A stretch of 60,929 nucleotides of DNA, filler included, from Gonapodya sp. JEL0774 (taxonomy: Eukaryota): NCBI GenBank assembly GCA_027604505.1. It is 6 parts of 6 records of this genome, joined end to end, with 100 filler letters (N's around TTAATTAATTAA, not from the genome) between each part and the next. Parts side by side here need not be neighbours in the genome. Positions count along the whole stretch, not along the records: positions 10,219 to 20,318 come from JADIIX010000392.1; 5 more parts are not named here. The stretch is one strand, 5' to 3'. How positions within the stretch are numbered: the first letter of the stretch is position 1; every line of letters starts with the position of its first letter. The position numbers and the translations under genes were made by a program. The notes under the pieces are model-generated. The model worked only from the letters and a program-made list of their open reading frames with translations. It was not told where the DNA came from and did no database searches. This document shows positions 8,442-59,715 of this stretch, piece after piece.

Positions 8442-10089
8442 TCAAAGGCTGACAGTTCCAATCGCAGTTCCGTAGATATCTGTTTTGGGTTTCTTGAGTT
8501 GCTTGATTTGATACTGCACGGAATAGGGCAACATGAAGAGAAAGAAGCGTGAGGTATCAGTTCAGTGAGTTCCCTGGGGGAGCGGCTGTGGTGGCTGGAG
8601 CTGTGCCGTTTCGCTCACCTCATTGTGCTCCCGTTTACCACGACGGGGTTTTACTTTTCGAGGTGTGTATTTGTACTGTTAAATTGAGCCAGAAGTAAGC
8701 TCGGATTATTCACGAACACAAGTACGGAACCTTGATCCAGGGCGACACGACAACTTACCCCAGGATACATCTCACCATGCTTCCTCCTACACTCTTCAGC
8801 AACAACCGAGTATTTTTCTTTCACATCCTTGGTTTCGTTCGCCCATCTCTCGCCAACCAACCTCGATACACGAATGTTGCTGATCGTCTCGCCCCGGGCG
8901 AGGTGCTCAGCGATTATGGCACGACTACAGTCACGTCGGTACAGAATAAAAGAGTTGGGAGGCCGTGGTACGATTGCCGGTCGGGGAGTGTTGCTTTTAC
9001 CCCGACCCGAATAAGGATCGTGAACATCATCAGCAGATGTAAGTTGCTGGCTGACCGACGCGGATCGCAAGTTGATCTTGCGAAGCAGCGAATGGAAAAA
9101 GGGCAGAGTCAAAGATAACATTTTCAGGCAGATAAAGCGCCGACTAGGTTGAAACCCACCTTTCCTTTGAGCCCTCTGCCCTTCTCCGCTGGAGACTCCA
9201 GTGAGAATACGCTGCTGCTAGTAGAGTCACTGCGCTCGGGTGTGTAGGCCAAATGAGCACCACACAACCGGGGATCAAGAAACCAAACCGTCGCAGGGTT
9301 TCCTTCATTTGAGGTGGACAAGTATTCGGCAGTTGCACAGTCGTCATCTTCCAGCACAGGATCTGCACTAGAATCTACGTAATCAAAGTCATTTGTGCAT
9401 GGAGTGTACCATGAGGTATTGATTTCCATGGAATTGGTGACCCTTCCGTGAGATGACTCCGAACTCCGTCGTGAGGTCCCCACCGGACTGTCAGGGCAAT
9501 ATTTGACCGCTGGCTCATGACTAAGGAGATGCGCTGATTGGGCAGTGTCGACCCTGAAGTAGGGAACGAGAATGGGTGGAGCCATGGATGTTGTGAGACT
9601 ATGAGGACCTGTTGTGCTCGCGCATAGTATGTATGATGGTGTGAGAGGTGCGACTACTTGAGGATCGTTGACCCAGCCAGACCACACCGCTGATTCTCCA
9701 AAGTCGTCTCCGTCAGCGTGAGTGGGTTGGGGGTTGGCATGTTCAGTTCCACGATCAGATATACTTCGTGGCTCAGAATCACTGGCTACCACGCCGTCAG
9801 GTCTGAGGCTCGGATGAAGTCCCGCCATTAACTTCTCCGTGTCCCACTCCTCCGCAAAATCGATGATTTCAAGTGGGGGATACATCGGTGATTGATCGAA
9901 GGTGATATTCGGTTGCTGACAGGCGTCCGGAGAGACGTCAGCGAGGACGGCGGACGAATGGAGACACTGGGACAGCGAGACTTTCAGAGACATGTGAATG
10001 GCTCGTTGATGGAGTGAACTGGTACGGGCAATGGGGGTCGCTGGGTGACGGCACCGCTCAAGAATGCTTAATATCGTGCATCGACGCAC
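8442..10089 (-). CDS. HMG-box transcription factor (MATA_HMG/SOX-TCF class); start uncertain, near contig end
   Basis: VPRPPNSFILYRR...ISNIRVSRLVGERWANETKDVKEKYSVVAEECRRKHGEMYPG|YKYTPRK, split by an intron. Long low-complexity N-terminal exon. Last exon ends ...GTVSL* at 8442. Confidence 0.85.
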
Positions 10090-10118: not shown

Positions 10119-10218
10119 NNNNNNNNNNNNNNNNNNNNNNNNNNNNNNNNNNNNNNNNNNNNTTAATTAATTAANNNNNNNNNNNNNNNNNNNNNNNNNN
10201 NNNNNNNNNNNNNNNNNN
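10119..10218. other. Artificial contig linker (N44-TTAATTAATTAA-N44)
   Basis: The identical 100-nt spacer, with stops in all frames, occurs five times in the window. Confidence 0.99.
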
Positions 10219-10220
10219 AG

Positions 10221-10873
10221 CCACAAGCCCCCAATATTCACGTGAGTGCATGGTTCACTGAATTCAGAAATTCGTCGCTGAGAGACAATCGCCCTGCATT
10301 CTGTTCCGACAATAGCCACAAGTCCACAATACTCTCGTGAGTTGTTTTCCGTGTCCTTCAACACTTTGGTCTCATACATTCTTGTCGTTTGGTAATTAGC
10401 CACGTCCCCGCAATACTCACCTACGTCACCTTCGTATTCGCCCACATCCCCATCCTACTCTCCGACCTCACCTTCGTATTCTCCGACCAGTCCGAGCTAC
10501 TCCCCTACTAGTCCCGGGGTCGGTGGAGGTGGCGCGGGCCCCCATGTTCCCCCACCCGGCCCATCGTATTCCCCATTGGCTGGTATGTTTGACAGAACCT
10601 CACTGAATTGTCCTATCCTAACCATCAAACGTTCCTGATATCTTTAGGAGCTACGAGCCCGACATACAGTCGTGAGTATACCAAGAAACACTACCGACTC
10701 TTGTGATGGAGTCGAAGGTCTAAGCGGTCGGGTACCGGAAAATAGCCTACAGTGCCGGTGCTTCCTCACCAAACTATTCTCCGCCGGTGCCAATGTCCCC
10801 CTATCCACGTGCTGGGTCCGGAACCAATGGCCCGTCAGGAACAGGTACTGGTGTGAACGGGAAGAAGAAATAG
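10221..10873 (+). CDS. RPB1: RNA polymerase II largest subunit, C-terminal heptad domain only (5' truncated)
   Basis: Exons 10221-10241, 10316-10336, 10400-10582, 10648-10671 and 10746-10873 splice to [19 protein letters not shown] (YSPTSPS)x4 YSPTSPG...[22 protein letters not shown]...GKKK*. Confidence 0.9.
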
Positions 10874-16908: not shown

Positions 16909-18707
16909 ATGTACGCTCCAAACCTTCCTGCCCTACCAATGCATCCTGCTCTACCTCAACCTCACGCATCGGCGTCGGCGTCTTCGCTGGCTATTCCAGC
17001 GAGACATTCAGCTACACTTGCAGAATCGATCAACGGACCTTCTCGGGTGCTTTCAGCCCAAGCCGGACAGGTCTGGGACCATGTACAAAACGCTGCTCGT
17101 GTAGTCTACGAAGCGTTTCCCAGACCTGATGCCGAGGAGCTAAAGGACTCGATGAAAAGTTTTGGGGTCGGCAGTGTTGCGGGCGCTTTGGGCGCGTTTT
17201 CAGTTTTCCCTCTAGGTGAGTCCCACCAACCCATGGAAGTTTCAATCTCCATGTGATTGGAAGCTGCACGGGTCGTTAAAAATGCTGGGGCAGACAGGAG
17301 AAGGTCCATCATCTGCGAATTTGAACAGGCCGACCATATATTTCAGGAAATATCCATGAAAACATATGTGAAGCCAGCGTGGACGCCAGAATGCTACAGC
17401 CTCTCACTTCTAAGATGCTAGTGTGAGCGGGGGGGTTTGACTTCAAGCATCTCTACGAGTGCGGGCCGCGTGTCCCGTCATTCACCCGACTGTGAATCAC
17501 CTGCGGATGAGACTTCCGCTTTGAGCTGGTCCTTCACTGAATGGAATGCTCAAGTCTGCAAGTTGGAATTTGTCCTGTCGGAACATTATTGACATTCCAT
17601 CTTCTTGCAACTTTAACTGCAGATGTTGCCAAAACCCGAATGCAGATGCAACGATTCACCACCACTCCAGGTGGTACGCTGGTCGAGGCGGCACGGTACG
17701 AAAGCATAGCTGACTGCTTTAAACAGATTTATCGTCAGGGCGGGATCCGGGCGCTCTATTCTGGGTGAGTTGGCTTGTGCAAACTCCGGGTGAATATTCG
17801 TTCGTTCACCCTCTTCTAACCTATCAAACTAGGCTCACCCCCCAGCTCCTCGGAGTCGCACCCGAACAAGCGGTGAAGCTGACAGTCAACCGCCGCCTCC
17901 GAGCCTACATCCACAACCACCTCCCGTCCTCCTCCGACCACCCGTCCCACTTGCCACCTCCAATCCTCCCGCTCCACCTCGAACTCGCTTCAGGCGCTGT
18001 CGCTGGTCTCGCTCAGTCAGTTTTCACCCAACCACTCGAGATTGTCAAGATCAAACTCCAGACTCACGGGGCACTGTTGAAGACCAGTCCACCCTACAAA
18101 CCTGTGTCGACATACGAGGTGGTGCGAAATATCGGAGGTTTTAAGGGTCTGTATACTGGATTTAGGGCGTGTGCGGCGAGAGATGTCGCTTTCAACGGGT
18201 TGTATTTCCCAGTCTACGTGAGTAGTCAACTTTCTGCCATGGCCGGCGTGGGCTTTCCCAGGCATGTTCATGCGTACACCAACACGCTCCTGTCCCGTTC
18301 AGTTCTCCATCAAGCACCACATCTTCCACGAACACCGACCCACCTTCGACCCTTCCAACGGCACGACCTCCCACTACAAACTCCCCTGGTACGAACTCCT
18401 CCTCTCCGGCTGCCTGGCTGGTATCCCTGCCTCATGGATCGTCACACCGCTCGACGTTGTCAAAACCCGCCTCCAAGCTGCCGACCCGAGGCACCCATTA
18501 CCCGCCGCCGCCGTGTCGTCATCGACGCAAGTGTGGGGGAAAGGGCTCGCAGGGGAAATGTGGAGAATATACTGCAATGAAGGGGTCCGAGCCTTGTGGA
18601 AAGGTGGTCTGATGAGGGTGGCGAGGACGGCGCCGCAGACTGGTGTGACGTTGGCTGTGTGGGAAATTGTCGGTGGTTGGATTATGGGCGATGAGGTGGA
18701 GGAATAA
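16909..18707 (+). CDS. Mitochondrial carrier (SLC25), aspartate/glutamate carrier AGC1-like, no EF-hands
   Basis: Three Px[DE]xxKx[RK] motifs (FPL|DVAKTRMQ, QPLEIVKIKLQ, TPLDVVKTRLQ), plus LTPQLLGVAPEQAVKLTVN and ALWKGGLMRVARTAPQTGVTL. Confidence 0.9.
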
Positions 18708-33577: not shown

Positions 33578-36551
33578 TCACCACGCAATGGCCGTAGTCA
33601 ATGGCAGCGTCACCGTCTGGCCAGCACTCATTGGAATCCATACCGTTACTGGATCAACCGTGGATGCCTGTTCGTATGTATACGCTGCGTTCCTGCTAGT
33701 CAGGGAAGCTGATGGAATTGCGACGCCGACTTTGCAAGCTTTCAAAGTCGACACCGAAATGCTTGAGAGAGCACGGTTGGCGATGATGAACTTGGTCGTT
33801 ATGCCGCAGGTCTCCCGACCTTCTCTCTCCCTAATAGAGATGAGTGTTTGAGTGTACGTGACTGATCCAACAATAGGGACGGCAAATCTCACCTGTAATA
33901 TTGCGCAAGCGAGTCCATTTTTACTCTTGAGGATGGTACGAGTTGTAACACTCTATCAGACATCATCGGGGTCCTTGTGGACACAGAAGCAAGCACCAAA
34001 CTCACGAAATTATTGGCCAATTCACCATCGCCTTGTACTGCGCAAACATTGTCTCAAACCACTGTTGCAAAATGCCGAGTTTACCTGATGCGCTACCGAT
34101 TGTGACGGATGGCTGGTCGGCGTTTCGCAAGTTTGCTTGGTGGAACATGTGAGGACTGAGAACAAGAAAAACAATCAGTGATGTTCATCGCTCATACCAA
34201 GCGCCTTGCAACTTACTCGTGCCTCAATGTCATCAGAGCAGCAATGACTCGGGAAGACTCTCGTTGGAGGCTTTGTTCGAGAGGATCGTCATTGATCATT
34301 CCCACGATGTTTGCACGACTGTAAGTAGCAGACGGAATGACTCACATTTGGGTCCAGTTGGAAGCTCCGAGAAGCGTCTGATACATTCCGTTGTAAATGG
34401 CAACGTTTTCGGTAACAGTGCTGCAGTGGTAGTAGATCTCGCTTGAGGAACGAATATCGAAACAAACCTTGTTAAATAAGTAAAGAACTTGTGTCAGTTG
34501 GCGATTGCTTACGTGGGCCATCTGGGAATCAAAGCGTAGTTTGCAAAATTAGAGCTAGCAACGGTGGACCGCCACAACGTGTGAACCGGGGAGGGCACGA
34601 GGTTGGTACGGGAGTTGTCTCCGACAATGGTATTGATGTTGGCGGCGGTGAGCGCTTGGAGTACGTCTCCATTGAACGGACCCGAGATTTGCGGAGTGAC
34701 CATGGAGTTTGGAGAGAACCAGGTTTGGCCTGTGAGTCCGAGCACTTGTGCCATGCGCTGGTTCATGACGATTTCTTGCTGGATGTCGTGGGTGGTGGCG
34801 TCATTGAGGTTCTCGTGGGTGAAGCTGGAGTGCCAAAAAAGTGGTGATTGCGTGAGTTGAATTATCAAAATGCAGAAAAGGGTCGCATTTCTGCAATCAC
34901 TCACGTGTGAGATACCCAGTTGAACTGGTTTCGGACAGACGATGATCTGTACGACAAGTCGTTGGAGTTTCGACATCAAAGTGTTTTCGAAGAGTTGCAA
35001 AGTCATGGTCACTTACGAAGTGAAGTAAGCGTACACCGGATCCTTTCCCAGGGTGGTGGAAGGAGACAAGAACCAACTGTACGTGTAAGAAGAGGGCCAT
35101 CGGCTAGTGCCCGTTCCTGGAGTCTTTACATAATCAAGGGTGGTGTATCCCTCAGTGTCGATATCTTTGTGCATCAGATGACTTCAGAGCGGTGCGATTT
35201 GAATGGGATGGAATTATAGCAACCTCCTCACCAATCAACTCAGAAGACCCAATAGCATCCAAGACACCGTTGCCGTTAAAGATAAGCTCCAGTTTAAAGT
35301 TGCTTCCGGTAGGAAGTCGCTTGTTGACGTCGGTTTGCCAGCTGATTATACCTTGCACGTCGGCTTTGGTAATACGGTACGCCACGTCAGGGTTAAGTGC
35401 ACCCTCGGTGGATAAGAAAACGTCATCAATCTGGCCGATGAAGAAAGTGCGACGGAAACCTGAGTGGGTCGTGCAGCCAGGTGATGGAGGATTTAGAATA
35501 GAAAATTAAAGTGGATTGAACAGAGAACAACGAACCTTGGTAGATCCCACGAGTACCCCACTGTAACCACACGTGATTCAAAAAGAGCGATGTTGTCGAC
35601 CAGAACCCAAATGGTGTGTAGAAGGCCATCTGCTGGCGACCGTTGTCGTAAGTGATGACAACAGCGCCGACTGTCTGGCTAGGCCAGGTGGGAGCCAGAG
35701 GTTCGAAGTACACAACTGGTTTGGCTAGAGTGGTATTTGTGATTGTCGCAGGGTAGTGCCAGAGACTGAGAAGTTGGGAAGGAGTGTGAACATATGTACC
35801 GGAGACAATGACACTCGGTAACTGACCCCGCAACAGTGATTTGCGGCGACGTGTTCAGGCCGGCAGCTGTGGCAAATGCTGAGTTCAAAGTGATAGTGTG
35901 CGCGTCGCTAGAGCCGCCGGAAGTTGCGGTGCCGTGGGCTGCTTGAGGCAAATCGTCCAGTGTCACGCGCCGAACGTTGTAGGTCGCTTCGTATTGTTCG
36001 AGCTGGGGACAAACTTGTGAGAAAACACTTCAAAGTAGGTCCCATGCAATCATCTCACGTATGACCATTGTGCGGCTGTGAGAGCGCTGGCCCAAGAAAG
36101 CGAAGCGTAGTTCAAGCTGGCTTGTGCGATGACGATCAAGCTGAGTCAGGAGAAATTGTGGAGTGGTCTTGAACTGATCGTAACACACAATAGGCGAAGC
36201 AAGTAAATCATTCACCTGTACTTGGGATTCCCAGAGGAGTCGACGAGAGGAAGGTTGCCGGTGATTCCCGTGGACGGTACAACAAGGACTTCGTAGGGAA
36301 TGCCGTACGCATCCAAAGTCATGGTAACAGGTACTATACGACGAAAATGTAATGGATCAATCTGAATGGATTTCATGCCCAACAACAGACCGTTGAATCG
36401 ATTAGGACTCACATTCAACTGCACTGTCGCTGGGAGTCACAGTGAGAATGAGAACCTTGTGGGTGAGAGAGAATCCCCGGACAATCGGAAGCGCAACGGT
36501 TAGCAAGGCGAGAGCAGCTAGGAGTAGATTCTTTGACTTGATTCGGGGCAT
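33578..36551 (-). CDS. Secreted Agd3-like polysaccharide deacetylase (CE18-like)
   Basis: Signal peptide, LDAYGIPYEVLVVP, GQIDDVFLST, spliced NWVSHTFTHENL, SPNSMVTPQISGPFNGD, IVGDNSR, PHMFHQANLR, EQYGSDPLT-like tail EQASTVDPVTVWI. Confidence 0.85.
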
Positions 36552-45880: not shown

Positions 45881-47300
45881 TCATCCAACACGCTGCAGTG
45901 TGTATCTTCGCACAATTTGGCGAACCTGCCGGTACGCCACCATCCCAAACTCTTCGTCAAGCTCAATACCGTTCCCAAAAAGGCCGATGACAACAGCTTC
46001 CTCTTCGTCTGTGAGTAGCTTGTTTGGAGGCTCGATTTGGCGATGGGGTTGGTTGAAAACTGGAAGGTCATCAGAGTCAATGCCGAAGTACGCCGGTGCC
46101 CGCTGGTAAAGGTCATCATCAGCGTGTACGTTGACCTACGAGTACCAAAATTGATTTATTTGGGTCCCTGTAAATGGTGTGTGCAAGGGGAAAGACAGAA
46201 AACACCATGGTCAAGCACTTACTTCGCTTCCAAGCCAGCGAAACTCAGCCATCAACTCCCTTGGGGTCCGGTGGTTTGTGGTACGCATACTGTGGTTGTT
46301 CCACGCAGTCACAAACTCTGCCAGCGCCCTGTTTATTACAGGTAAGTACACCAGATGCAACGCGCACACATCAACTTCGTTGTACGGGTCCAACTCGCCC
46401 AGTGACTCCAGCCACTGAAACACGGAGATAAAAAGCGCAACCACCAAACGGTTACTATCTCTCCATAGCCTCTCAATGCGTTGGTTGTGTGTGGAAGTGC
46501 CACGAATGAAGCTCCCACGGTCAGGTCCACGCAGTTCCGTCATGAGCCTGGCAACATCATTGTTCTCACCACCATAGTCACCACGGACACGACTTGGAAC
46601 GCCACATTCACGCAGTCCCTGAGATAACGAAATCGTCCACTGTTTGGTGATTTTTTTTTGGGGGGGGGGGGGTACAGTCAATACATTGTAACACTTTGGA
46701 ACTCACCTGTCGAAAAATACAAAGCACTGTGGACGCTCGGTTATTAGTGGCCGCCTCAAGGTAAACAATGTACCGAGAATAACCATCAATGCAGCCGTGA
46801 ATGACAAATCCATAGGCGTTCAACTGCAGAAGAGTTGAGAAACACCAGTGCGTATTAATTTGTTAGTGCACACTGCTGTGGCCGACATGAGCAGCATTGA
46901 CTCACTTTATGGTTTCCATCCGTATGCCAAAGTGCATTTGGGCCTGACACGTGATAGCGACGACGTGCTATGGTGTAGTGGCTTCGACCTTCGACACCTT
47001 CAGAATCCACTCGACGCAGCGAGCGCCTAATTCTGTGGATAGAGACTTTCAACCGAAAACGGCCGTAGAGGAGACCTATTTGGAGAAGAAAAACGTTCCG
47101 AAGTTTGGTCCGGAGCGGTGGAGTCGGGGCCGAGGTGTAGGCGGAGGCAGGAGTAGGTGGCACAGGTGTTGTTGATCTGTCCTCCAGCTCCAGCTCCAGA
47201 CCCCCAGACCTTTCCAACCTGGTCCGTGCCATGTCTACCGCGGCATCGACCTCCACACTTCTCTCCCCATCACTCGGCCTCGAATTATGATGCATTTTCG
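45881..47300 (-). mobile_element. Eukaryotic IS3/IS481-related (IS3EU-like) DDE transposase with spliceosomal introns; 5' end uncertain
   Basis: RIRRSLRRVD...RRRYHVSGPNALWHTDGNHK|L...FVIHGCIDGYSR...NNRASTVL..F|..[14 protein letters not shown]...[15 protein letters not shown]...WNNH...|...FGIDSDD...GMVAY*. The D-D-E triad is intact. Confidence 0.88.
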
Positions 47301-48774
47301 CCCCAAACCCGATTGCCATGGCCACCGACATGCGGTTCAAAGGGGAAACACCCTTCCCACGGTCATGGTACTCGCTTGGACCATGCTGAGTCTCTTGATG
47401 TGGTTCTGCATGCAGGGACGCGGTCCGTCTCTGCACCGACTGCACCTGTTCGGGTCCCCGTCAAGGTTGCCCCGGAGTGGACGCCGCACCACATCTCGTA
47501 CAGTGACCGTCGTGGGTCGGAGTCTGCAAACGGGAGGGGGGGGGGGGGGGGGGCCCAACCCGAAACACAACTGTCCAACAAGGCACAAAAGGCCNNNNNN
47601 NNNNCTCGCGCCGGGGGGCGGGCGGCCGCGTGGGCGCCCCCCCCCCCCCCCCCCCCCCTCGCCGGCGGCGGGCCGCGCGCGGGCGGGCCCGGGCCCGGGG
47701 GGGGGGGCCCCCCCCCCCCCCCCCACCACAGCGATCCACAACTGTCCACCAAGGCACAAACTGCGACCGAACAGCCCTTTCAAACCGTCGTCAACCTCCT
47801 CCCCGTTATATCCGTACATGATCGCGAGCAGCTCTCTCACTTACCTCATGGTATTAATCGAACGCAACGATCGCCTCTGTTTGATTGCCATCCACCATCA
47901 CACTTTCCTTCCCGAACCACTCAGCGCCTTCCTGGTGCTTCCACGGGTTTGCTCGCCCCTACTTGCAGTTTCAGATGGAATAATCAACCACTGAAGCCGA
48001 GCGCGCATCAACGTGGGAACGGAGTGATTAGAATTCACGATCTGCAGGGGGGACCAGCCGGATCATCGGCCGATCTTCAATCCGAAACGTTTTGATTATG
48101 AAAACGATAAGTGCTTGTAAGAAAAACTCCTCCTTTCTCGATGTCATTTTGTGTCAAATGAAAAATGAAAATGATGATTGTGTTGTCTCTCTTGTGGTGG
48201 TGGTGTAGATGTTCCTTTGCTGTTGTGTTGCCTCTATTGTGTGGTTCCTGCACTCTTTATGGGGTTGACATTCAATATTCTTTACATGATACCTCTTTAA
48301 TGTGTATGTTTGCTTCTCTTGTGTGATGGTACAGGTGTTGTATAATTTTTGGGTCAAAATTTTCCCATACGCCAGCTGAATACACATATACATTGCTGTC
48401 CATCTGCTCAATCATGCCCCCGTTCAATCGTTGAACCTCACATGACAGAGCTCTCTTGCTACATTACACAATGCCTTTAATGATAGCACGGACTCACCCA
48501 TGAGCTGCGCCTCTGGGCCCAGTCGTGTCTCCCTGATCGACCAGCAATATGATTTTTTACTTTCCTTTGGATGATTCTCCGTTTGTTCCCGTCCTTTCTT
48601 TCCTCGTCGTGTTAGTTCTGTATACAAGAATGCCATGATCCCGCCTCTGTGACAAAATTACAAGATTGTGCACATTACATAGATGCCCACGCTTCCTCGA
48701 TCGGCGACACAATGCAACCATCGCCATCCCTAGTGTCACCAACAGAACATACCACCGCGATGCATCCGCCCTCT

Positions 48775-50819: not shown

Positions 50820-50919
50820 NNNNNNNNNNNNNNNNNNNNNNNNNNNNNNNNNNNNNNNNNNNNTTAATTAATTAANNNNNNNNNNNNNNNNNNNNNNNNN
50901 NNNNNNNNNNNNNNNNNNN
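50820..50919. other. Artificial contig linker
   Basis: N44-TTAATTAATTAA-N44. Confidence 0.99.
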
Positions 50920-51297
50920 TGTTGTGGATTCGACGGCGACGACGTGCTCCAGCAGCGTGACGGCCTTGCCCACCTGCCCGTTGGCCTGGTACGCCCAAGC
51001 GAGTTCGTGCTGCGAGGCGAGGCGGGACGGGTGGTCCTCGGCCAATGTTGTGGATTGGACGGCGACGACGTGCTCCAGCAGCGTGACGGCCTTGCCCACC
51101 TGCCCGTTGGCCTGGTACGCCTGAGCGAGTGTGTGCTGCGAGACGAGGCAGTCCGGGTGGTCCTCGGCCAGAACCCGCTCACTGACGGCGACGACGTGCT
51201 CCAGCAGCGTGACGGCCTTGCCCACCTGCCCGTTGTCCTGGTACGCGGAAGCGAGTTCGTGCTGCGAGGCGAGGCGGGACGGGTGGTCCTCGGCCAG
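50920..51297 (-). repeat. Three near-identical 126-bp (42-aa) TPR-coding tandem repeats, cut by the contig end
   Basis: Units 51297-51172, 51171-51046 and 51045-50920: LAEDHPxxLxSQHxLAxAYQxNGQVGKAVTLLEHVVAVxxxx. Confidence 0.95.
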
Positions 51298-53637
51298 TTT
51301 CAGCGCATCCCGTCTTCCAATGTCGCATTTCTGGAGCCACATCACGGCTTCTGGCACTTTGCCATCCTTTTTCAAGCATCGTCCGATCCAGAAACAAAGG
51401 ACGTATCGTTCCGCCAATTCCTTGCCTTCGCTGCTTCCCAGCACTTTAACGGCGTGCGGGAGGTACGCCCTCCACACATCCCTGGCGTCCCAATCGTCTG
51501 TTTGAAAAACTGTCGCGATGTGCTGAATCGCTTCTCTCGTCTTTTGTGCAGTAAGGCCCTGTATGCGAAGCCAGTCTCCAGCCGCCAGATGCACTAACCG
51601 GTGGAGGTCATACAGGTCCTGGTCCTTCCGAGGCGACACGAAGGAATAACCAATAAGAGTACCGATAGCATCTTCCATTTTTAGTATTGACTGCGCTGCA
51701 GGCAAGATGGATCGAGGAATTGCCTTGGACTCGATGCACGACATGAAAGACAAGAGATCCGCGGCCAGGGGATCGTTTGTGCGGATCTGGTTGAAGGAGA
51801 CCAGCCACGTTGTGGCCACGGCATTGCTCGATCCTGAATAGCGTTGCTTGTTGACGAATTCCTTGCTCAGGAGGTCGGCCACCTCCGAGCTTCGTAAAAT
51901 GTCAAGATAGCCAGCAATGGACAGTTGTTTGTTTTTATTCAGATACGCTACCGCCTGAGAGAGTGCCAGTGGCAAACAGGTGAGCTCCTCCAGAAGGTTG
52001 TCCACGCTTGCGAAGTCGTACAGGAGCTCCTTGCGGATGAGGGACGTCTTAAGTAACTCCTTCGCCTCCTGCTCATCCATGGCGTCTACATCAATGACAT
52101 CGGCCACCGCCAGCGCAACTGCGACCTCTTGAATGCGGGTTGTGTACACGAAGAGCCCCTCCTCGCTCTGTGGAAGGTAGTCTGCGATACCGGGGGCTCC
52201 CCCGGACCCGTTTACAAGTCTCGCATCGTCGGCATTGTCGAGGACGATGAGCCAAACACCTGCCCTCTTCGTACTCAAATGCTGCTTCACAAGGTCCTTG
52301 ATGTCGTCGTCCTTGTCCGAACGTATCCCCAGTGTTTTTGCAATCTCCCGGCATGCCTGCTCGAAGCTCTCCATGCTGATAGCAGGTAACCAAAACACAG
52401 AGCGCCTTCTGTCCGCCTCCTTGACCTGGTAAGCAAACTCCAGCGCAACCTGCGTCTTTCCGACCCCGCCGAGGCCGACAAGAGCCATCTGCCGGCATTC
52501 CTTGTTGTTGCCTAAGAGTTTGTGCGCCAACTGTTGAAGTTGAGAGGTGCGGCCCACAAAACGAGGATTCCGCGGAAATGGAATGTACGCTGTAAATTTG
52601 CAGATTTGCGTCAGGTCAGCTCAGTTCCTGTAACACCCACCCGCACCGCGCGTGGCTTGACGGGTGAAAAAGAAAAAGTGACGAACCTCGTGTTCCCGGA
52701 TCGGTCCTGGGTATCACCAACAGGAGTTCCTTGGCGCATGCTGCAGCTGCGCCTGCTGCATAGCCCTGCCAGTTGGAGTTTTTGTGCGAGTCTGCATAGT
52801 CACAAATGCCTCGAATCACAAGACATGGGAAATGATTCATGAGCCCTGCCGCTTCCATCTCGAAGCACAGGACTCCTCCGAGATCGGTGCTGACTCTGTC
52901 CCGTTGCATCCCATCCCTCATGTCCTGATTCCCGGATGCAATCAAACCGTAGTGAACCATGGGCTCTTGAAGAGCTCGAGTGGGCCGAAGGAGTTGCCTT
53001 TCAGCGCTGCAGGACGTGCACGCGTGGCGGCCACGTTCGTGATTATAGCTCGGATGGAACAAGACGTCAGGTCCGGCAGCCTCCCGACGAAAGATCGGAA
53101 GGGGAAGAAGCTTCGTCAGGTGACCCGCAAGGCCATCTTTCTCGGTGACGAGGTTAGCTTGAAGTTGGCTGACAGCATTGAGAAGCAACGGCGGTGGACT
53201 GTTGAGGAATCCCTTTCGGCGGAACCCCTCGTGAGTTGTTTCCCCAAAGTCGTACTGCACCACGCCACCGTGAGTTTCCAAGGGCTGACTGACGACCACA
53301 TCGCCCAGTCGAATGTCTGCGTCCGGGCTGGGAACACCGCCTCCGACGCCTACCATGAGACGGAACTGCAGGGAATCGAAGGTCCGGCCGAGGTTGTTCG
53401 CAACCGCTGCGGCAGAGCTGGTCCCGCGATTTCCGGCCGGAAGACAAGCGACGACAACATTGTGTACCCCGATCCGTCCGAAAGAGTAGATGTTTGGGTC
53501 GCTCATATCCCGATCGAGTGGTTGATATTCCTCGTCAAACATTGCCCGGGCAGCCGCGAGCTCGGTCGGGAGAGCGCATATCCACCCAACAGTATACTCG
53601 TCGGAACGCAGGCGTCTTGCCTTGGAGCCATCTGGAG
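50920..53637 (-). CDS. Fungal NLR: PNP_UDP (nucleoside phosphorylase-like) + NB-ARC + TPR, 3' truncated
   Basis: EYTVGWICALPTE, LMVGVGGG, DIRLGDVVVS, CFEMEAAG, IRGICDYADSHKN. Intron 52590-52686 leads to YIPFPRNPRFVGR, P-loop GLGGVGKT, Walker B WLIVLDNADD, LPLALSQA, LHRLVH, then 42-aa TPRs. Confidence 0.95.
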
Positions 53638-54077
53638 CTGTACAGGGGGTGTGCATGGTAAGTTGACAAGTGTGATCCGGAGAAACACTGTGTTCAGGGA
53701 TCACCTCCTGCACGCCTGTCCGACATTCAATTCAGTTCTTTGAGGTAAGGAAAGAGATTTCTTTGGGGGTTTTGGTCGACAAAGCCCTCCAACAGTGCTG
53801 CTGGACAATCTTGTGGGTTGCAGGGCAAGGTCCGCCACCTCGCCCTGAGAGGGGCAACCCTGGCTGGGTCTTCCCCGATTGGGCAACATTCAATGTATCG
53901 CTACCGGTGAGCAAGGCACACTCAGTGTATTTGTATCACTTCTTTTTGTTAAACCCAGTGCTTTAACAACACAAATGAATTGCAAGGTAGTGCCACCACC
54001 CAAGTCAGTCAGTCAGCCAGCCAGCTAGCCATCCTCACATGAGAGATGCATGATTTTTGAGAGCAGGAAAGAGAGCT

Positions 54078-55000
54078 TCAACCACTCCGACGAGCTGATG
54101 GCTGTATCACAGATAACATCTCTTTGGCGCAAGCAGCTGCGGTTGCGGCAGCGTACCCCTGCCACTTTTGATTCTTGTGCGAGTCCGCGTAGTCGCAGAT
54201 ACCCCGAATCACGAGGCAGGGAAAGTTGGACATCAGCCCCGCCGCCTCCGTCTCGAAGCACAGAATGCCTCCAAGCTCCTTGCTCGTTGCATCTCGTTGG
54301 GCCGCGTCACCCATCACTCGGCTGCCCGAAGCGATGGTACCGTAGTGAACGACCGGCTCTTCGTCTTGTCGAGGTGATCGCAAAACCTGTTGGCATGGTC
54401 GCTGCGTAGGTCCAGGGGCGTGGTTGCATGTCGCATCAAATAGTATATCCTTCCCCGTCGCAGCGCGAGAGAACGCTCGGAGACGAGTCAGCTTGGCGAT
54501 ATGATCCGCAAGGCTGTTTTCTCCCACGAGTTGGCTGGCCCGAAGGTGGGTGACCGCATTGAGTAGCATCCGTGGCGGGCTGTCGAGGTGTCCAGTTCTA
54601 TGGAACCCACTCGAAGTCAACTGACCGCTGTCAAACTGAACCACACCGCCGTGCGTTCCAAAGGGCATACTAACGACGACATCTCCCAGTCGGATGTCTG
54701 CGTCCTCACTGGGGACCCCGCTTCCGATGCCCACCATGAGACCAAACTCCACCGACGTGAATGTCCGCATGAGCTGCGCCGCGACAGTCGCAGCGGAACT
54801 TCCTCCTGTCATGCCAGCTGGAAGACGCGCGAGGATGACATTGTGCACCCCGATTCGGCCGAACGAGTAAATATTGCCATCACCGGCAATCCGGTCAAGG
54901 GCAGGATGCTTTTCATCCAAGAGTGCAGTTGCGGCAGCCAACTCAATGGAAAGGGCACATATCCATCCGACAGTGTACTGGTCGGGCCGAAGTGGTTGAG
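54078..55000 (-). CDS. Second PNP_UDP domain exon
   Basis: QYTVGWICALSIE, LMVGIGSG, DIRLGDVVVS, CFETEAAG, IRGICDYADSHKNQKWQGYAA. No ATG of its own, and preceded by the acceptor ttggtag. Confidence 0.9.
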
Positions 55001-55056
55001 CTACCAACGAAAACGGATCTTTTTACCATCGTCGAACTCAAAACTTCAAAAAGAAT

Positions 55057-57065
55057 TTATGGTCTACCTCTGGCAGCAATATTTGGTGCCGTGCCCGGTG
55101 GTACTTCCGCCTCTGTATGAGCAGGCGCTACCATGTGCCGATGCGGACCGGGGTTCCATGTGTTGGCAGTTGCAACCCCTTGCTCGAAATGTCTTGCCGG
55201 TACCGGTGATGGTTGCTGCGAAGTGGTTGCAGAGGGAGCGAGAACAGAATCGACATGCGCTGGTGCTACCTGGAGCCTGGGAGGCGGTTCGGGATCGGTC
55301 AACTGGGGGAAATGGTTTTTGAGGTCTTTCACAATTTCCGCGAAAGTTGGACGCTGTTCAGGAAGTGGGTCCCAGCAGCGCTTGACAAGTTTCTTGACTG
55401 GTTCTGGCATTGGAACGGCAGCCATTCTCTGCGTCTCTGACAGGTTCTCCAGGTCCTCATATGTGTCAATGTCAGGCCGATCTCCGCTCAAAATGCAATG
55501 GACAATGGAACCTTCCATTGCAGTGAAGAAGGGAATCTGGAGCGTATACATCTCGTAGAGGGTCATCGCAAAAGCATGCACATCCACCTTTGCAGACAAC
55601 TTTGGTTTTCTGCCAAAGAGTTCGGGCGCCATCCAATTTGTCGTTCCGCGGCGTGCTTCTTTGCTGAGAGTCGAAACTTGGGATGCTATAACCGCGAAGC
55701 CAAAGTCTGCAACAAGAGCATGGCCCATATCATCCACTAGAACATTGAGCGCCTTGAGGTCGCAGTGAAGGACTCCTTTTGTGTGGAGGTGTTGCATGGC
55801 ATTCGCAATGTCGAAAATGAGATCGATGCGGTCTGCACGCGGATTCTTCGTCAAATACGTGAGGAGATCGCCGTTGCGCATATAAGGCGATACCATGAAT
55901 GGCGGTGTGGCCCGGAGATTTGCTCCGAAGAGTTGTATGATGTTGGGGTGGCGAAGACGGTACCAGCGTTCCACCTCGTTATGAACAAGCTGATAGTGAG
56001 TAGAACAAGGTGAGATGTTGGTACAATGACGGGCCGAAAAGGACAATTGCCCCACTCACCGCTTTTAAGTTTTCGGGTGGATGTTCCACTAGCAAGTACT
56101 TTATGGCAACGCGACGAGTTCCTCCCCATGTCCCGAGATACACCTTACCGAATCCACCTGCTGCAAATGGAGTGCTGTTGCGTGCAACATCCTGTTCCGG
56201 GATATGCCATTCTTCATCGGCCAAGTATTGACCCGATATACGTGAAATAGAGGTCCGGGCCTTGCCGAGAAGATCACGTTCGTTCGGACTGGGCGAACCA
56301 ACATTGAGGGTTGCTTGTATTCCTCTCAAGATCTCCAAAACGTGCTGGCCCTGACTGTTTGTAACCTCCAGTGTTGCGAGGATGGTTGCGTCGTTCTTCA
56401 GCAACTGGTCCAGCGCATTCTGCGCGGTAACTTCCTCAGCTTGCCGGTCTGCCTTGTTCTCGGCGGCCCAGCTGTCGAGGTTCAGCGTAGCCGTAAGCTA
56501 TCAACAAAACATTCGTTAAGTTGGTCATGGAGCTTTTCGAAAAAAATTTGATGTTGTTCCACGAACCTGAAAGTCATTTACCATAGACTGAAGTCTATTG
56601 TCGTACTCTTCAAGTTCCTTTCGTGTAGCGCTGCTGTTGAGTACGCGGTACCACTTTGGCTTCCCTTTGACCGTCTCGAGGAACTTGGCAACCTCCATGA
56701 GAAACCTGGAGACGAGGAACAGATATTAGAAATCGTATTCGATTTTCTTCAGAACAAACTCACTCAGTGAACTTCTTGGCATGGGTTTGGAGAGGTTCTC
56801 GAATGTCCTTGTTTCCAGGGTCCATTCGGCTGGCGATGGCTTGGACGAGCAAGGCACAGCGGCTGGCAAGACGCACGACGAGCTCTTTGTTGTCCTTAAA
56901 GTCCTTTGACAGAGTGTAGACAGCGCGGAGAGCCTCAGCGCAGGTTCCAAACACCGGGATGTTAGTGAGGTTGGAGACGACATTCAGGACGGTAACGACG
57001 CCATCGAGCAGGTTATTGACAAACACGGGATCGACTGCATTCGAACCATCCACGCAGGCCTCCAT
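55057..57065 (-). CDS. MLKL-like N-terminal helical domain + TKL-type protein kinase
   Basis: Exons 57065-56764, 56705-56582, 56497-56060 and 55989-55068. N-terminal IPVFGTCAEALRAVY...KDNKELVVRLASRCALL is the MLKL_NTD pattern. Kinase motifs GGFGKVY, VAIK, HCDLKALN, DFG, WMAPE, CWDPLPEQRP. Confidence 0.88.
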
Positions 57066-57861
57066 CGTCCTACTTTTCGGGGAAACTCTAGGGTGGTGAA
57101 GGTGGTGGTTCAGCCAGCCACCAAAGCTTTGGTCACAGCCATTTGAAGGCCAAGGACCACGTACCAACCAAAACCGAGGCGGAGACGAGCTGCGCATACC
57201 CAGCCAGTCCAGACCGAGCCAGGAGTGACCAGGCACACTTGGAAAGGGGCTGTGCACACACGAAGGCGGCGCCGGGCTCACCTTCCATCTGCCAAGCACA
57301 CAGAGAGGGGGTGTGACGGTGGCCCTGGTTTGAGAATACAGTTGCTCCAGCTGCTCCTGGAATCAACTCATAGGGAAAGATCTAGACCTACCCGTCACGG
57401 AGTCACAAAAGGGTGCGTATTTTTCGGAATGCTATGGTTTTAACAGAAAAATGGGGCAGTAAGCGCACCACTCGAATGTCGTACATTACGCCGCATGCTG
57501 CCACAATTCTTTTTCTCTTTCGAGATGGAAGGCAGTGTCGAAAACAGACCGTACTTCAGGTGGCCCAGCTGTGGATCAGGCGAAAGCGAGTGTCAAGAGA
57601 CAAATTGTCCCCGCTATCAGCAATGGCTTTCCAAACACATTCAGTCTCGACCATCTGGGACAAAGTATTCTCCGAAACTTCCGCGTTCGGACGTTTGGTG
57701 AGCAGATTGGGCAGTCCTCACGTCACAACCAGCATCTCTTAAATCATTTCTGCCTCTCTGGACGACGAAACTGCTGATCAGTACATCATGTTACCGTTCG
57801 CGAAAATCAACCAAGGAAGAAAAAGCGCAGATCCCCCGGTATATTTTTCCGAGTTTATATA

Positions 57862-58470
57862 ATGATAATGGCAAAAATATTGAAAAGAGAACTACCTTGT
57901 GGTGTCTCGTTGGATCAAGGCATTTTGCCTATGGAACTTCACGCAAGCAAGGAGAAGTTTGAAATCTTATGGTCACTGAAACCACCAAAGTATGGCCACG
58001 TTGTTATTCAGGGACGTTCCATACCAACTCCAAGATATTTCCAAAATTACAACAAATCGTATTATTTCTCCGGATTGAGTCACAGTGCAATGCCAACTCC
58101 TGACACTCTGCAACCATACATCGATTGGGCGAACACACTACCTGAGTACAGACATTACGGAAAGTTTGATCAAATATTGGCAAACTGGTACATCAATGGA
58201 AGTCATTACATCGGACCACATTCCGATTCTACAATAAACGTAATACCAAGAAGTCCGATACTTTCCATCAGTCTGGGAGTGACAAGAATGTTTAGAATTC
58301 GAGATAAGAAGTCGAAAATGATTCTCAAAGACGTTGAAGTGAAAAACAATACCTATAGTGTCATGTGTGGCGATTTTCAGAACAAATGCACACATGAGAT
58401 CGTAAAGTCTAAGAGAGTAAATGGACCTCGAATGAGCATCACATTGCGGATGTCGCTCGACCAGTCCTGA
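57862..58470 (+). CDS. AlkB-family 2OG-Fe(II) dioxygenase (ALKBH2/3-like), intronless
   Basis: PTPRY, LANWY, YIGPHSD (HxD), ILSISLG..RMF, THEI (distal His), RMSITLR. Visibly more AT-rich than the neighbouring host genes. Confidence 0.93.
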   Translation: MIMAKILKRELPCGVSLDQGILPMELHASKEKFEILWSLKPPKYGHVVIQGRSIPTPRYFQNYNKSYYFSGLSHSAMPTPDTLQPYIDWANTLPEYRHYGKFDQILANWYINGSHYIGPHSDSTINVIPRSPILSISLGVTRMFRIRDKKSKMILKDVEVKNNTYSVMCGDFQNKCTHEIVKSKRVNGPRMSITLRMSLDQS

Positions 58471-58574
58471 TCATTATCTTTCAATGTTTTTCATGAGTTG
58501 TTCCTGCTGGCTCACAAAACGGTATGTGTCCAAGTTGTAAACGGGGGTGTCGACGAAGGCAGCGGTTTTTCTAG

Positions 58575-58915
58575 ATGCGATTCCACATTCTGAAACTTTT
58601 CGAAATCTCATCCCGGATGGGGATGAGGATGGGGATCAGACTTTCTGAAAACTTTTCGAAATCTTCATCCGGGATGAGGATGGGATCAGACTTTCTCAAA
58701 CTTTTCGAAATCCTCATCCGGGATGAGGATGGGATCAGACTTTCTGAAAACTTTTCGAAATCTTCATCCGGGATGAGAATGGGATCGGACTTTCTCAAAC
58801 TGTTCGAGATCCTCATCCGGGATGAGGATGGGATCAGACTTTCTGAAACTTTTCGAAATCTTCATCCGGGATGGGGAGAAGATGGTTTTCGATCACATTC
58901 TGAAACTTTTCAGGA
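58575..58915 (+). repeat. Tandem array A: about 6 units of 49-50 bp, each with two palindromes
   Basis: Unit TTCT(G/C)AAA(A)CTTTTCGAAATC(T/C)TCATCCGGGATGAGGATGGGATCAGACT. Palindromes TTTCGAAA and ATCCTCATCC-G-GGATGAGGAT. Alternating 50/49-bp units give a 99-bp higher-order repeat. Confidence 0.95.
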
Positions 58916-58980
58916 TGAAGGAAAAATCAGCCGCCATCACTCTTATTTGCGTCTAGTTCTTTATACAGGCAACAAACAAC

Positions 58981-59715
58981 TTATTTCTTGTACAGTGGAA
59001 GGTTGTCCTTTACTACTATTGGCTTAGTTGTCGTCAGCCCAACTTCGACGTCCGATCCACCATGTCGACAGCAACATCCTCTGTAGTACACATCCTTCAA
59101 ACACGCGAGCACAAAACAACAGAGAACAACGCCGACAATCATCGCCAACACTGCAACTGTCCACGTCATTCCAGTCACCACCGCCATCCATCGCGGCGAC
59201 GCTGACGTTCCGTGAACCCACCCAATGTTCGTGCTGTTCAACGCCCTTTCAATCGCTTCCTTCTCTGCTTCACTCGCTTCCCAGTTGGTGCTGACATACA
59301 CCGGACCAGCCTTCCCAAACGTCGCCAAAAGTCCGTTTCCTGAAACATGCCCTCCAACCATCCATTCACCAGGTAGGGTCCAGTCGAGGTCTCCTCCGCC
59401 AACGCTGCCATTCAATTGCTTTGACAATTCAAATGTCACCGCAAGCGCGTTCCCAACGATCTCGTTCGCCTGCCACCACGTGAACCCATACCCAATCGCC
59501 CTGATTCGCCGCCCTCCCGTTTCAAGATACACCGTCGCTCCATACATCCCACACGTGGCTCTTGCTGTCAGCGGGCACGTCACACACTGGTTAGCATACC
59601 CTCGTCGAACCAAGACAGTCCTGTCTTCCCCCGTCCCATCAACCCCGCTCGTACTCGTCGCAGTGAATACCGCAATGCTCAGTGTAATCAGAACAGTCAA
59701 AAGCGTTTTCAGCAT
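58981..59715 (-). CDS. Intronless type I membrane (glyco)protein of unknown family
   Basis: Signal peptide, VLVRR|G dibasic site, NGS and NST sequons, C-terminal TM helix and a Cys-rich tail (LCCFVLAC...GCCCR). Confidence 0.75.
   Translation of the reverse strand: MLKTLLTVLITLSIAVFTATSTSGVDGTGEDRTVLVRRGYANQCVTCPLTARATCGMYGATVYLETGGRRIRAIGYGFTWWQANEIVGNALAVTFELSKQLNGSVGGGDLDWTLPGEWMVGGHVSGNGLLATFGKAGPVYVSTNWEASEAEKEAIERALNSTNIGWVHGTSASPRWMAVVTGMTWTVAVLAMIVGVVLCCFVLACLKDVYYRGCCCRHGGSDVEVGLTTTKPIVVKDNLPLYKK

Follow-up and report, generated by a model that had tools for sequence, protein, structure and literature searches.

Fibrillar collagen genes are built of 54-bp exons that are repeat-sized, share the same phase, arose from duplication and are constitutively spliced. 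They differ from the repeats described here, in the CTD of a probable Gonapodya RPB1, in that collagen introns are in phase 0, the exons are larger and the protein is structural. The closest described parallel is the LRR array of Tetrahymena, which has exons of 90 bp with introns in phase 2, and for which an origin through unequal crossing over is proposed in the accessible sections of PMC6564038. As in Tetrahymena, the Gonapodya array has one repeat per exon, a single intron phase and a junction codon split between exons. The Tetrahymena LRR arrays are spread over thousands of fast-evolving genes with 30-residue repeats and a linked retroelement, according to the same sections (PMC6564038). 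In Gonapodya, unlike Tetrahymena, a single essential gene carries the array, with two or three units of 7 residues, and no mobile element was seen. The 21-nt exon equals the repeat length, all four introns are in phase 1 and three of the four are in register. The layout is a variant of repeat-per-exon arrays, found in an essential gene.

At the protein level, the locus resembles the S. cerevisiae RPB1 CTD in its tandem YSPTSPx heptads at the C-terminus and in the degenerate 21-bp DNA repeat that encodes them. In the accessible text on the yeast CTD, units are gained or lost in 21-bp steps, the indels being multiples of 21 bp with microhomology at their flanks, and expansion depends on Rad52 and contraction on Rad5 (PMC4882425, PMC7341143). 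The word "intron" is absent from the accessible text of both papers. Unlike in the yeast case, single heptads lie between introns here, and a duplicated unit would span ~85-95 bp. A search of the openly accessible literature, mainly of titles and abstract openings, found no description of an intron-punctuated CTD. The accessible passages on introns in PMC9451162, PMC1326215 and PMC3646058 concern other subjects.

Gonapodya is an early-diverging, zoosporic fungus of the Monoblepharidomycetes. We read the locus as the likely 3' end of its RPB1 gene, in which predicted introns of one phase interrupt the CTD repeats. Duplication of repeats probably multiplied these introns and splicing probably removes them all, and we give this reading as a whole a probability of about 0.65. 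The window analysed is a stretch of 60,929 nt, in which six contigs of ~10 kb each are joined by five identical linkers, and all coordinates refer to the whole window. The second contig (10219-20318) opens with the repeat region (Table 1).

Table 1. Features of the predicted RPB1 3' end, in coordinates of the window
Feature	Position	Strand	Description	Status
Artificial linker	10119..10218	.	N44-TTAATTAATTAA-N44, non-biological; same linker at all five joins	
Probable 3' splice site	10219..10220	+	AG; upstream intron truncated, two bases left	inference
Exon 1	10221..10241	+	21 nt provided that AG is an acceptor; encodes one heptad, (P)TSPQYS, Gln7	predicted from DNA
Intron 1	10242..10315	+	74 nt, phase 1, GTGAGT..TAG, in Ser-Pro register	predicted
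Exon 2	10316..10336	+	21-nt micro-exon flanked by two whole introns; encodes one heptad, (P)TSPQYS, Gln7	predicted
Intron 2	10337..10399	+	63 nt, phase 1, GTGAGT..TAG, in register	predicted
Exon 3	10400..10582	+	183 nt, Pfam PF05001	predicted
Intron 3	10583..10647	+	65 nt, phase 1, GTATGT..TAG, out of register, within a Gly codon	predicted
Exon 4	10648..10671	+	24 nt, Thr7 heptad plus three extra bases	predicted
Intron 4	10672..10745	+	74 nt, phase 1, GTGAGT..TAG, in register	predicted
Last exon	10746..10873	+	128 nt; degenerate heptads, lineage-specific tail, three Lys, then TAG stop	predicted

Splice paths were enumerated from 10221 with common donor types, introns of 45-130 nt and at most five introns. 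The highest count, 10 Tyr-Ser-Pro motifs, is attained by six of the 141 paths. Introns 1-3 are the same in all of these; variation is restricted to intron 4, whose acceptor is either the TAG at 10745 or the AAG at 10724, and to optional use of a weak donor at 10851. The AAG at 10724 is a second in-frame acceptor and a possible alternative to the TAG. In every one of the six paths, the heptads give way at the protein C-terminus to a short tail and a stop. The four predicted GT-AG introns are 63-74 nt long, and all are in phase 1 and end in TAG. Each contains an in-frame stop if retained; the length of intron 2 is a multiple of three, yet a stop lies in frame inside it too. The acceptor of intron 3 is a TAG-GAG tandem, which hints at a 3-nt acceptor shift. 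Use of the distal GAG would give a 21-nt exon 4 in the same register, as the last 21 nt of this exon (10651-10671) come after the GAG and share the register of exons 1-2. Exon 3 encodes one Gln7 heptad, four Ser7 heptads, a Gly7 unit, a Gly/Pro spacer and one degenerate heptad.

The initial annotation had assigned the heptads to the Pol II CTD, and homology bears this out. Exon 3 matches PF05001 at E=2.3e-8 with 34.3 bits (cut-off 20.3), and RPB1 domains occur in all 120 matches listed, of 2842, for the heptad exon query. The listed homologues are long-CTD RPB1s, mostly from animals, and none among those listed is from Gonapodya. At least one Gln7 heptad is found in 46 of the 120 proteins and Gln7 heptads in tandem in 15, in a set biased to long CTDs. 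The RPB1 catalytic body was not found in the window by tblastn with three fungal RPB1 proteins, which matched the repeat and elsewhere only two weak Ser/Gly-rich stretches. The tail exon has no relative among 52 candidates, and its single match among 1.84 billion representatives is an unrelated repetitive protein. It is conceivable that the model is partly wrong: the locus could hold RPB1 in a decayed copy or some other protein with heptads, the contig start could be mis-assembled, or exon 1 could be the end of a longer exon. The lack of a body in the window and of relatives of the tail speaks for such an error. We regard such an error as very unlikely. The frame is open to the stop, the splice sites are intact and third-position changes preserve the peptide. 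Together, the frame, the splice sites and the silent third-position changes point to a maintained gene. The spliced model holds just 7 full YSPTSP units, so more heptads likely lie upstream, which also argues against this alternative.

Two 21-nt exons encoding (P)TSPQYS with ag/gtgagt flanks had been annotated initially. This description stands for 10316-10336, but at 10221-10241 the acceptor consists of AG alone, which is all that precedes 10221 on the contig and directly follows the N-linker. Since these are the only two bases before the contig end, the 5' edge of exon 1 is unproven and the number of fully bounded 21-nt exons is one. It is possible that the AG is coding, as ...A GCC (Ala) in a sequence of the Gly-Ala-Thr-Ser-Pro kind. 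Exon 4 provides a precedent, where A-GCT (Gly-Ala-Thr-Ser-Pro) puts AG in coding sequence just before a heptad. An acceptor is nevertheless the likelier reading of the AG, because an ordinary upstream heptad would end in C. The 24-nt exon does end at the same Ser-Pro point as the 21-nt exons, as annotated; its heptad is Thr7 and its upstream intron is off register. The contrast drawn between Gln7 micro-exons and Ser7 heptads in one exon is correct in part. Both 21-nt exons encode Gln7 and four Ser7 heptads lie in exon 3, but a third Gln7 heptad opens this 183-nt exon and Gln7 is therefore not confined to micro-exons.

The register of the introns is difficult to attribute to chance. Three of the four introns interrupt the Pro codon of Tyr-Ser-Pro between its first and second bases. 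For three of four junctions to fall on the 10 Tyr-Ser/Pro sites among 375 positions, P=7.4e-5, which becomes 1.6e-3 after multiplication by 21 for any of the 21 registers and 0.013 with phase 1 taken as given, in a test that is partly circular because the junctions were chosen to restore heptads. Beyond restoring heptads, each junction has a donor that fits the consensus and TAG as its acceptor. With the AG at the contig start taken as an acceptor, a pair of exons of exactly 21 nt arose in a fraction of 3.5e-4 of 200,000 random placements, and all internal exons were symmetric in 0.012 of random placements. The heptad micro-exon pattern, with at most one mismatch, has three matches in the window, all in this gene, against 0.00 expected from 100 shuffles. 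The gene structure is real and non-random, with exons predicted from the DNA. Metagenomes scanned for 21-nt micro-exons that encode a heptad in the Tyr-Ser/Pro register gave six loci, all of them chance matches without heptads, and viral contigs gave no match to the same pattern. Neither these scans nor the tail-exon queries turned up an orthologous locus or protein. The pattern covers one register and GTRAG donors only, and the scan thus says little on other fungi.

The heptads might have existed first, with introns gained or kept singly, either as ancestral introns or as gene-conversion copies of one intron in neighbouring heptads that left the number of heptads unchanged, and with constitutive splicing. 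The number of introns fits the genome background and is unremarkable (four in 375 nt compared to 1.7 expected at 4.5/kb, P=0.09). One intron is off register, the introns are not alike overall and micro-exons also occur in an unrelated gene, all of which speak for separate introns. Independent placement, however, gives no single register (1.6e-3 to 0.013). The proto-splice consensus AG/G is the context of intron-gain sites, and the three in-register junctions read C/C instead, which makes repeated gain at a favoured site a poor account. The gene-conversion variant explains the register too and yields the same picture as duplication at this locus. Overall, we consider an origin from separate introns rather unlikely.

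No overall similarity was detected between introns in any of the six pairs (shuffle fractions 0.22-0.84). Introns 1 and 3 share a 10-nt word, a length reached in 24 of 2000 shuffles, with 8 nt the longest in 39 control pairs; the word might at best be a faint trace of common origin. Units of exon plus flanks (29 nt) match the first at 86, 72 and 69%, mostly through coding and splice constraint. The Gln7 heptads have 3 of 7 codons in common pairwise, and exon 2 is nearer to a Ser7 heptad (5/6) than to the neighbouring Gln7 heptads. Two Ser7 heptads 42 nt apart are identical at 18 of 21 positions, as slippage within an exon would give. Gln7 is common to the three heptads directly after an acceptor; against reading much into this, such heptads are frequent among the listed RPB1 proteins with no need of a duplication model. 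A recent duplication was rejected, as both introns and codons have diverged. The growth of the CTD by joint duplication of exon and intron, proposed initially, remains the best reading given the register, the C/C flanks and the common Gln7. The introns do not resemble each other overall, and duplication is thus inferred rather than seen.

Under repeat duplication, a single intron would first have been located in a Tyr-Ser/Pro junction. Misalignment of the 21-bp CTD repeats, of the kind measured in yeast, could then have occurred during recombination or through a switch of template. If the pairing slipped by one heptad across the intron, the intron and a heptad would be copied again, and the result would be two introns in the same register with a 21-nt exon between them. 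The heptad adjoining the intron would be the one copied, which would account for Gln7 in the two micro-exons and in the opening heptad of exon 3. The Ser7 run may have grown by the same slippage inside one exon. The divergence of the introns and of third codon positions would place these events far back in time. Such slippage would cover exon length, phase, register and the Gln7 after acceptors without any function. We suggest that the spliceosome of this intron-dense fungus may include the micro-exons routinely and so produce one main CTD length. Judged from the DNA, the micro-exon layout is most likely neutral in origin and constitutively spliced.

Regulated micro-exons measure ~27 nt or less, and the 21- and 24-nt exons are similarly short and frame-preserving. 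The micro-exons could therefore be alternative cassettes, with in-frame skipping of Gln7 heptads producing Pol II isoforms that vary in the length of the CTD and in its share of Ser7. The accessible text of two studies describes an effect of CTD length on activation (PMC8090853) and, near 8-10 repeats, on yeast growth (PMC4882425). The internal exons are symmetric, and skipping would consequently keep the frame. A further study (10.1101/825299) reportedly also finds that CTD length matters, and for this reason the idea of skipping deserves a test. Frame preservation is no evidence of regulation though, as it is automatic when a 21-nt repeat duplicates. The donors of both micro-exons are the consensus GTGAGT of the genome and the flanking introns are short, which speaks against cassettes, as does a symmetric 6-nt exon in the window that supplies a conserved enzyme motif. 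Exon skipping is low in fungi, and the bias towards 3n exons is found mainly in animals and not outside them, according to the accessible sections of PMC6142364. Alternative cassettes are very unlikely on this evidence. The same small likelihood applies to an array that runs on upstream, with much of the CTD encoded as one heptad per micro-exon and regulated skipping that varies tail length and the Gln7/Ser7 composition, for example between zoospore and mycelium.

Constitutive inclusion of micro-exons, as expected under the duplication reading, is consistent with the intron-rich background of this fungus. The accessible text of PMC8476143 gives its congener G. prolifera 4.5 introns/kb, the highest of 263 fungi. 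Introns of the carrier, dehydrogenase and Agd3-like genes in the window are 68-85 nt except for one of 407 nt, with mostly GTGAGT donors. The mitochondrial carrier gene (16939-18707, +) has introns of ~407, 68 and 85 nt, all with GTGAGT donors. It corresponds to the Gonapodya protein P0121, with identity over 402 residues in four exons, and its best matches are two Gonapodya proteins. A short-chain dehydrogenase gene on the first contig (+) has predicted micro-exons of 19 nt (469-487) and 6 nt, the latter symmetric (1112-1117). The exons flanking the 6-nt exon end at position 171 of PF13561 and resume at ~175, and the 6-nt exon with its split codons fills 172-174, completing the conserved NSVHPG motif. 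As an ordinary dehydrogenase has 6- and 19-nt micro-exons, those at this locus need not be regulatory. Skipping in the dehydrogenase would break the motif, and the spliceosome therefore likely handles micro-exons routinely. The Agd3-like deacetylase gene (PF25115) contains a symmetric phase-2 exon of 42 nt encoding FNWVSH (34905-34946, -) flanked by introns of 70 and 80 nt. In the same gene, a candidate micro-exon of 20 nt was rejected, as the exon is 42 nt long.

The window holds further features outside these genes. Near the end of the first contig lies an HMG-box open frame (8651-9217, -; PF00505, E 9.7e-11), which presumably resembles mating-type HMG proteins. A cluster at 50872-56497 (-) resembles fungal NLR-type immunity genes, with frames unusually intron-free for this genome. 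It includes a long open frame with a PNP_UDP_1 domain (52616-53731) and a kinase (55057-56055); inspection by eye adds a P-loop and TPR-like repeats at 50872-52620 and a second phosphorylase-like frame at 54078-55022. At 57778-59027, in a stretch of lower GC, an intronless 2OG-Fe(II) oxygenase frame (PF13532) adjoins a tandem repeat of ~78 nt (58575-59027), seen in translation. The oxygenase and repeat stretch is possibly acquired DNA. An integrase core domain (PF24764, E 9.1e-44; 46211-47460, -) is probably a transposon remnant; the neighbouring sequence is GC-rich and is interrupted at 47595 by an N gap of 10 bases.

If repeat duplication is the true origin of the layout, the in-register introns would be a fossil record of CTD growth. 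Intron counts across Monoblepharidomycetes would then show how an essential repeat gains units and that slippage can multiply introns. Gene finders likely drop 21-nt exons, and the length of the CTD may be under-counted in intron-rich fungi, with consequences for comparisons between lineages. If skipping were regulated, splicing would feed back on the platform that recruits splicing factors and the locus would offer a natural test of the role of CTD length.
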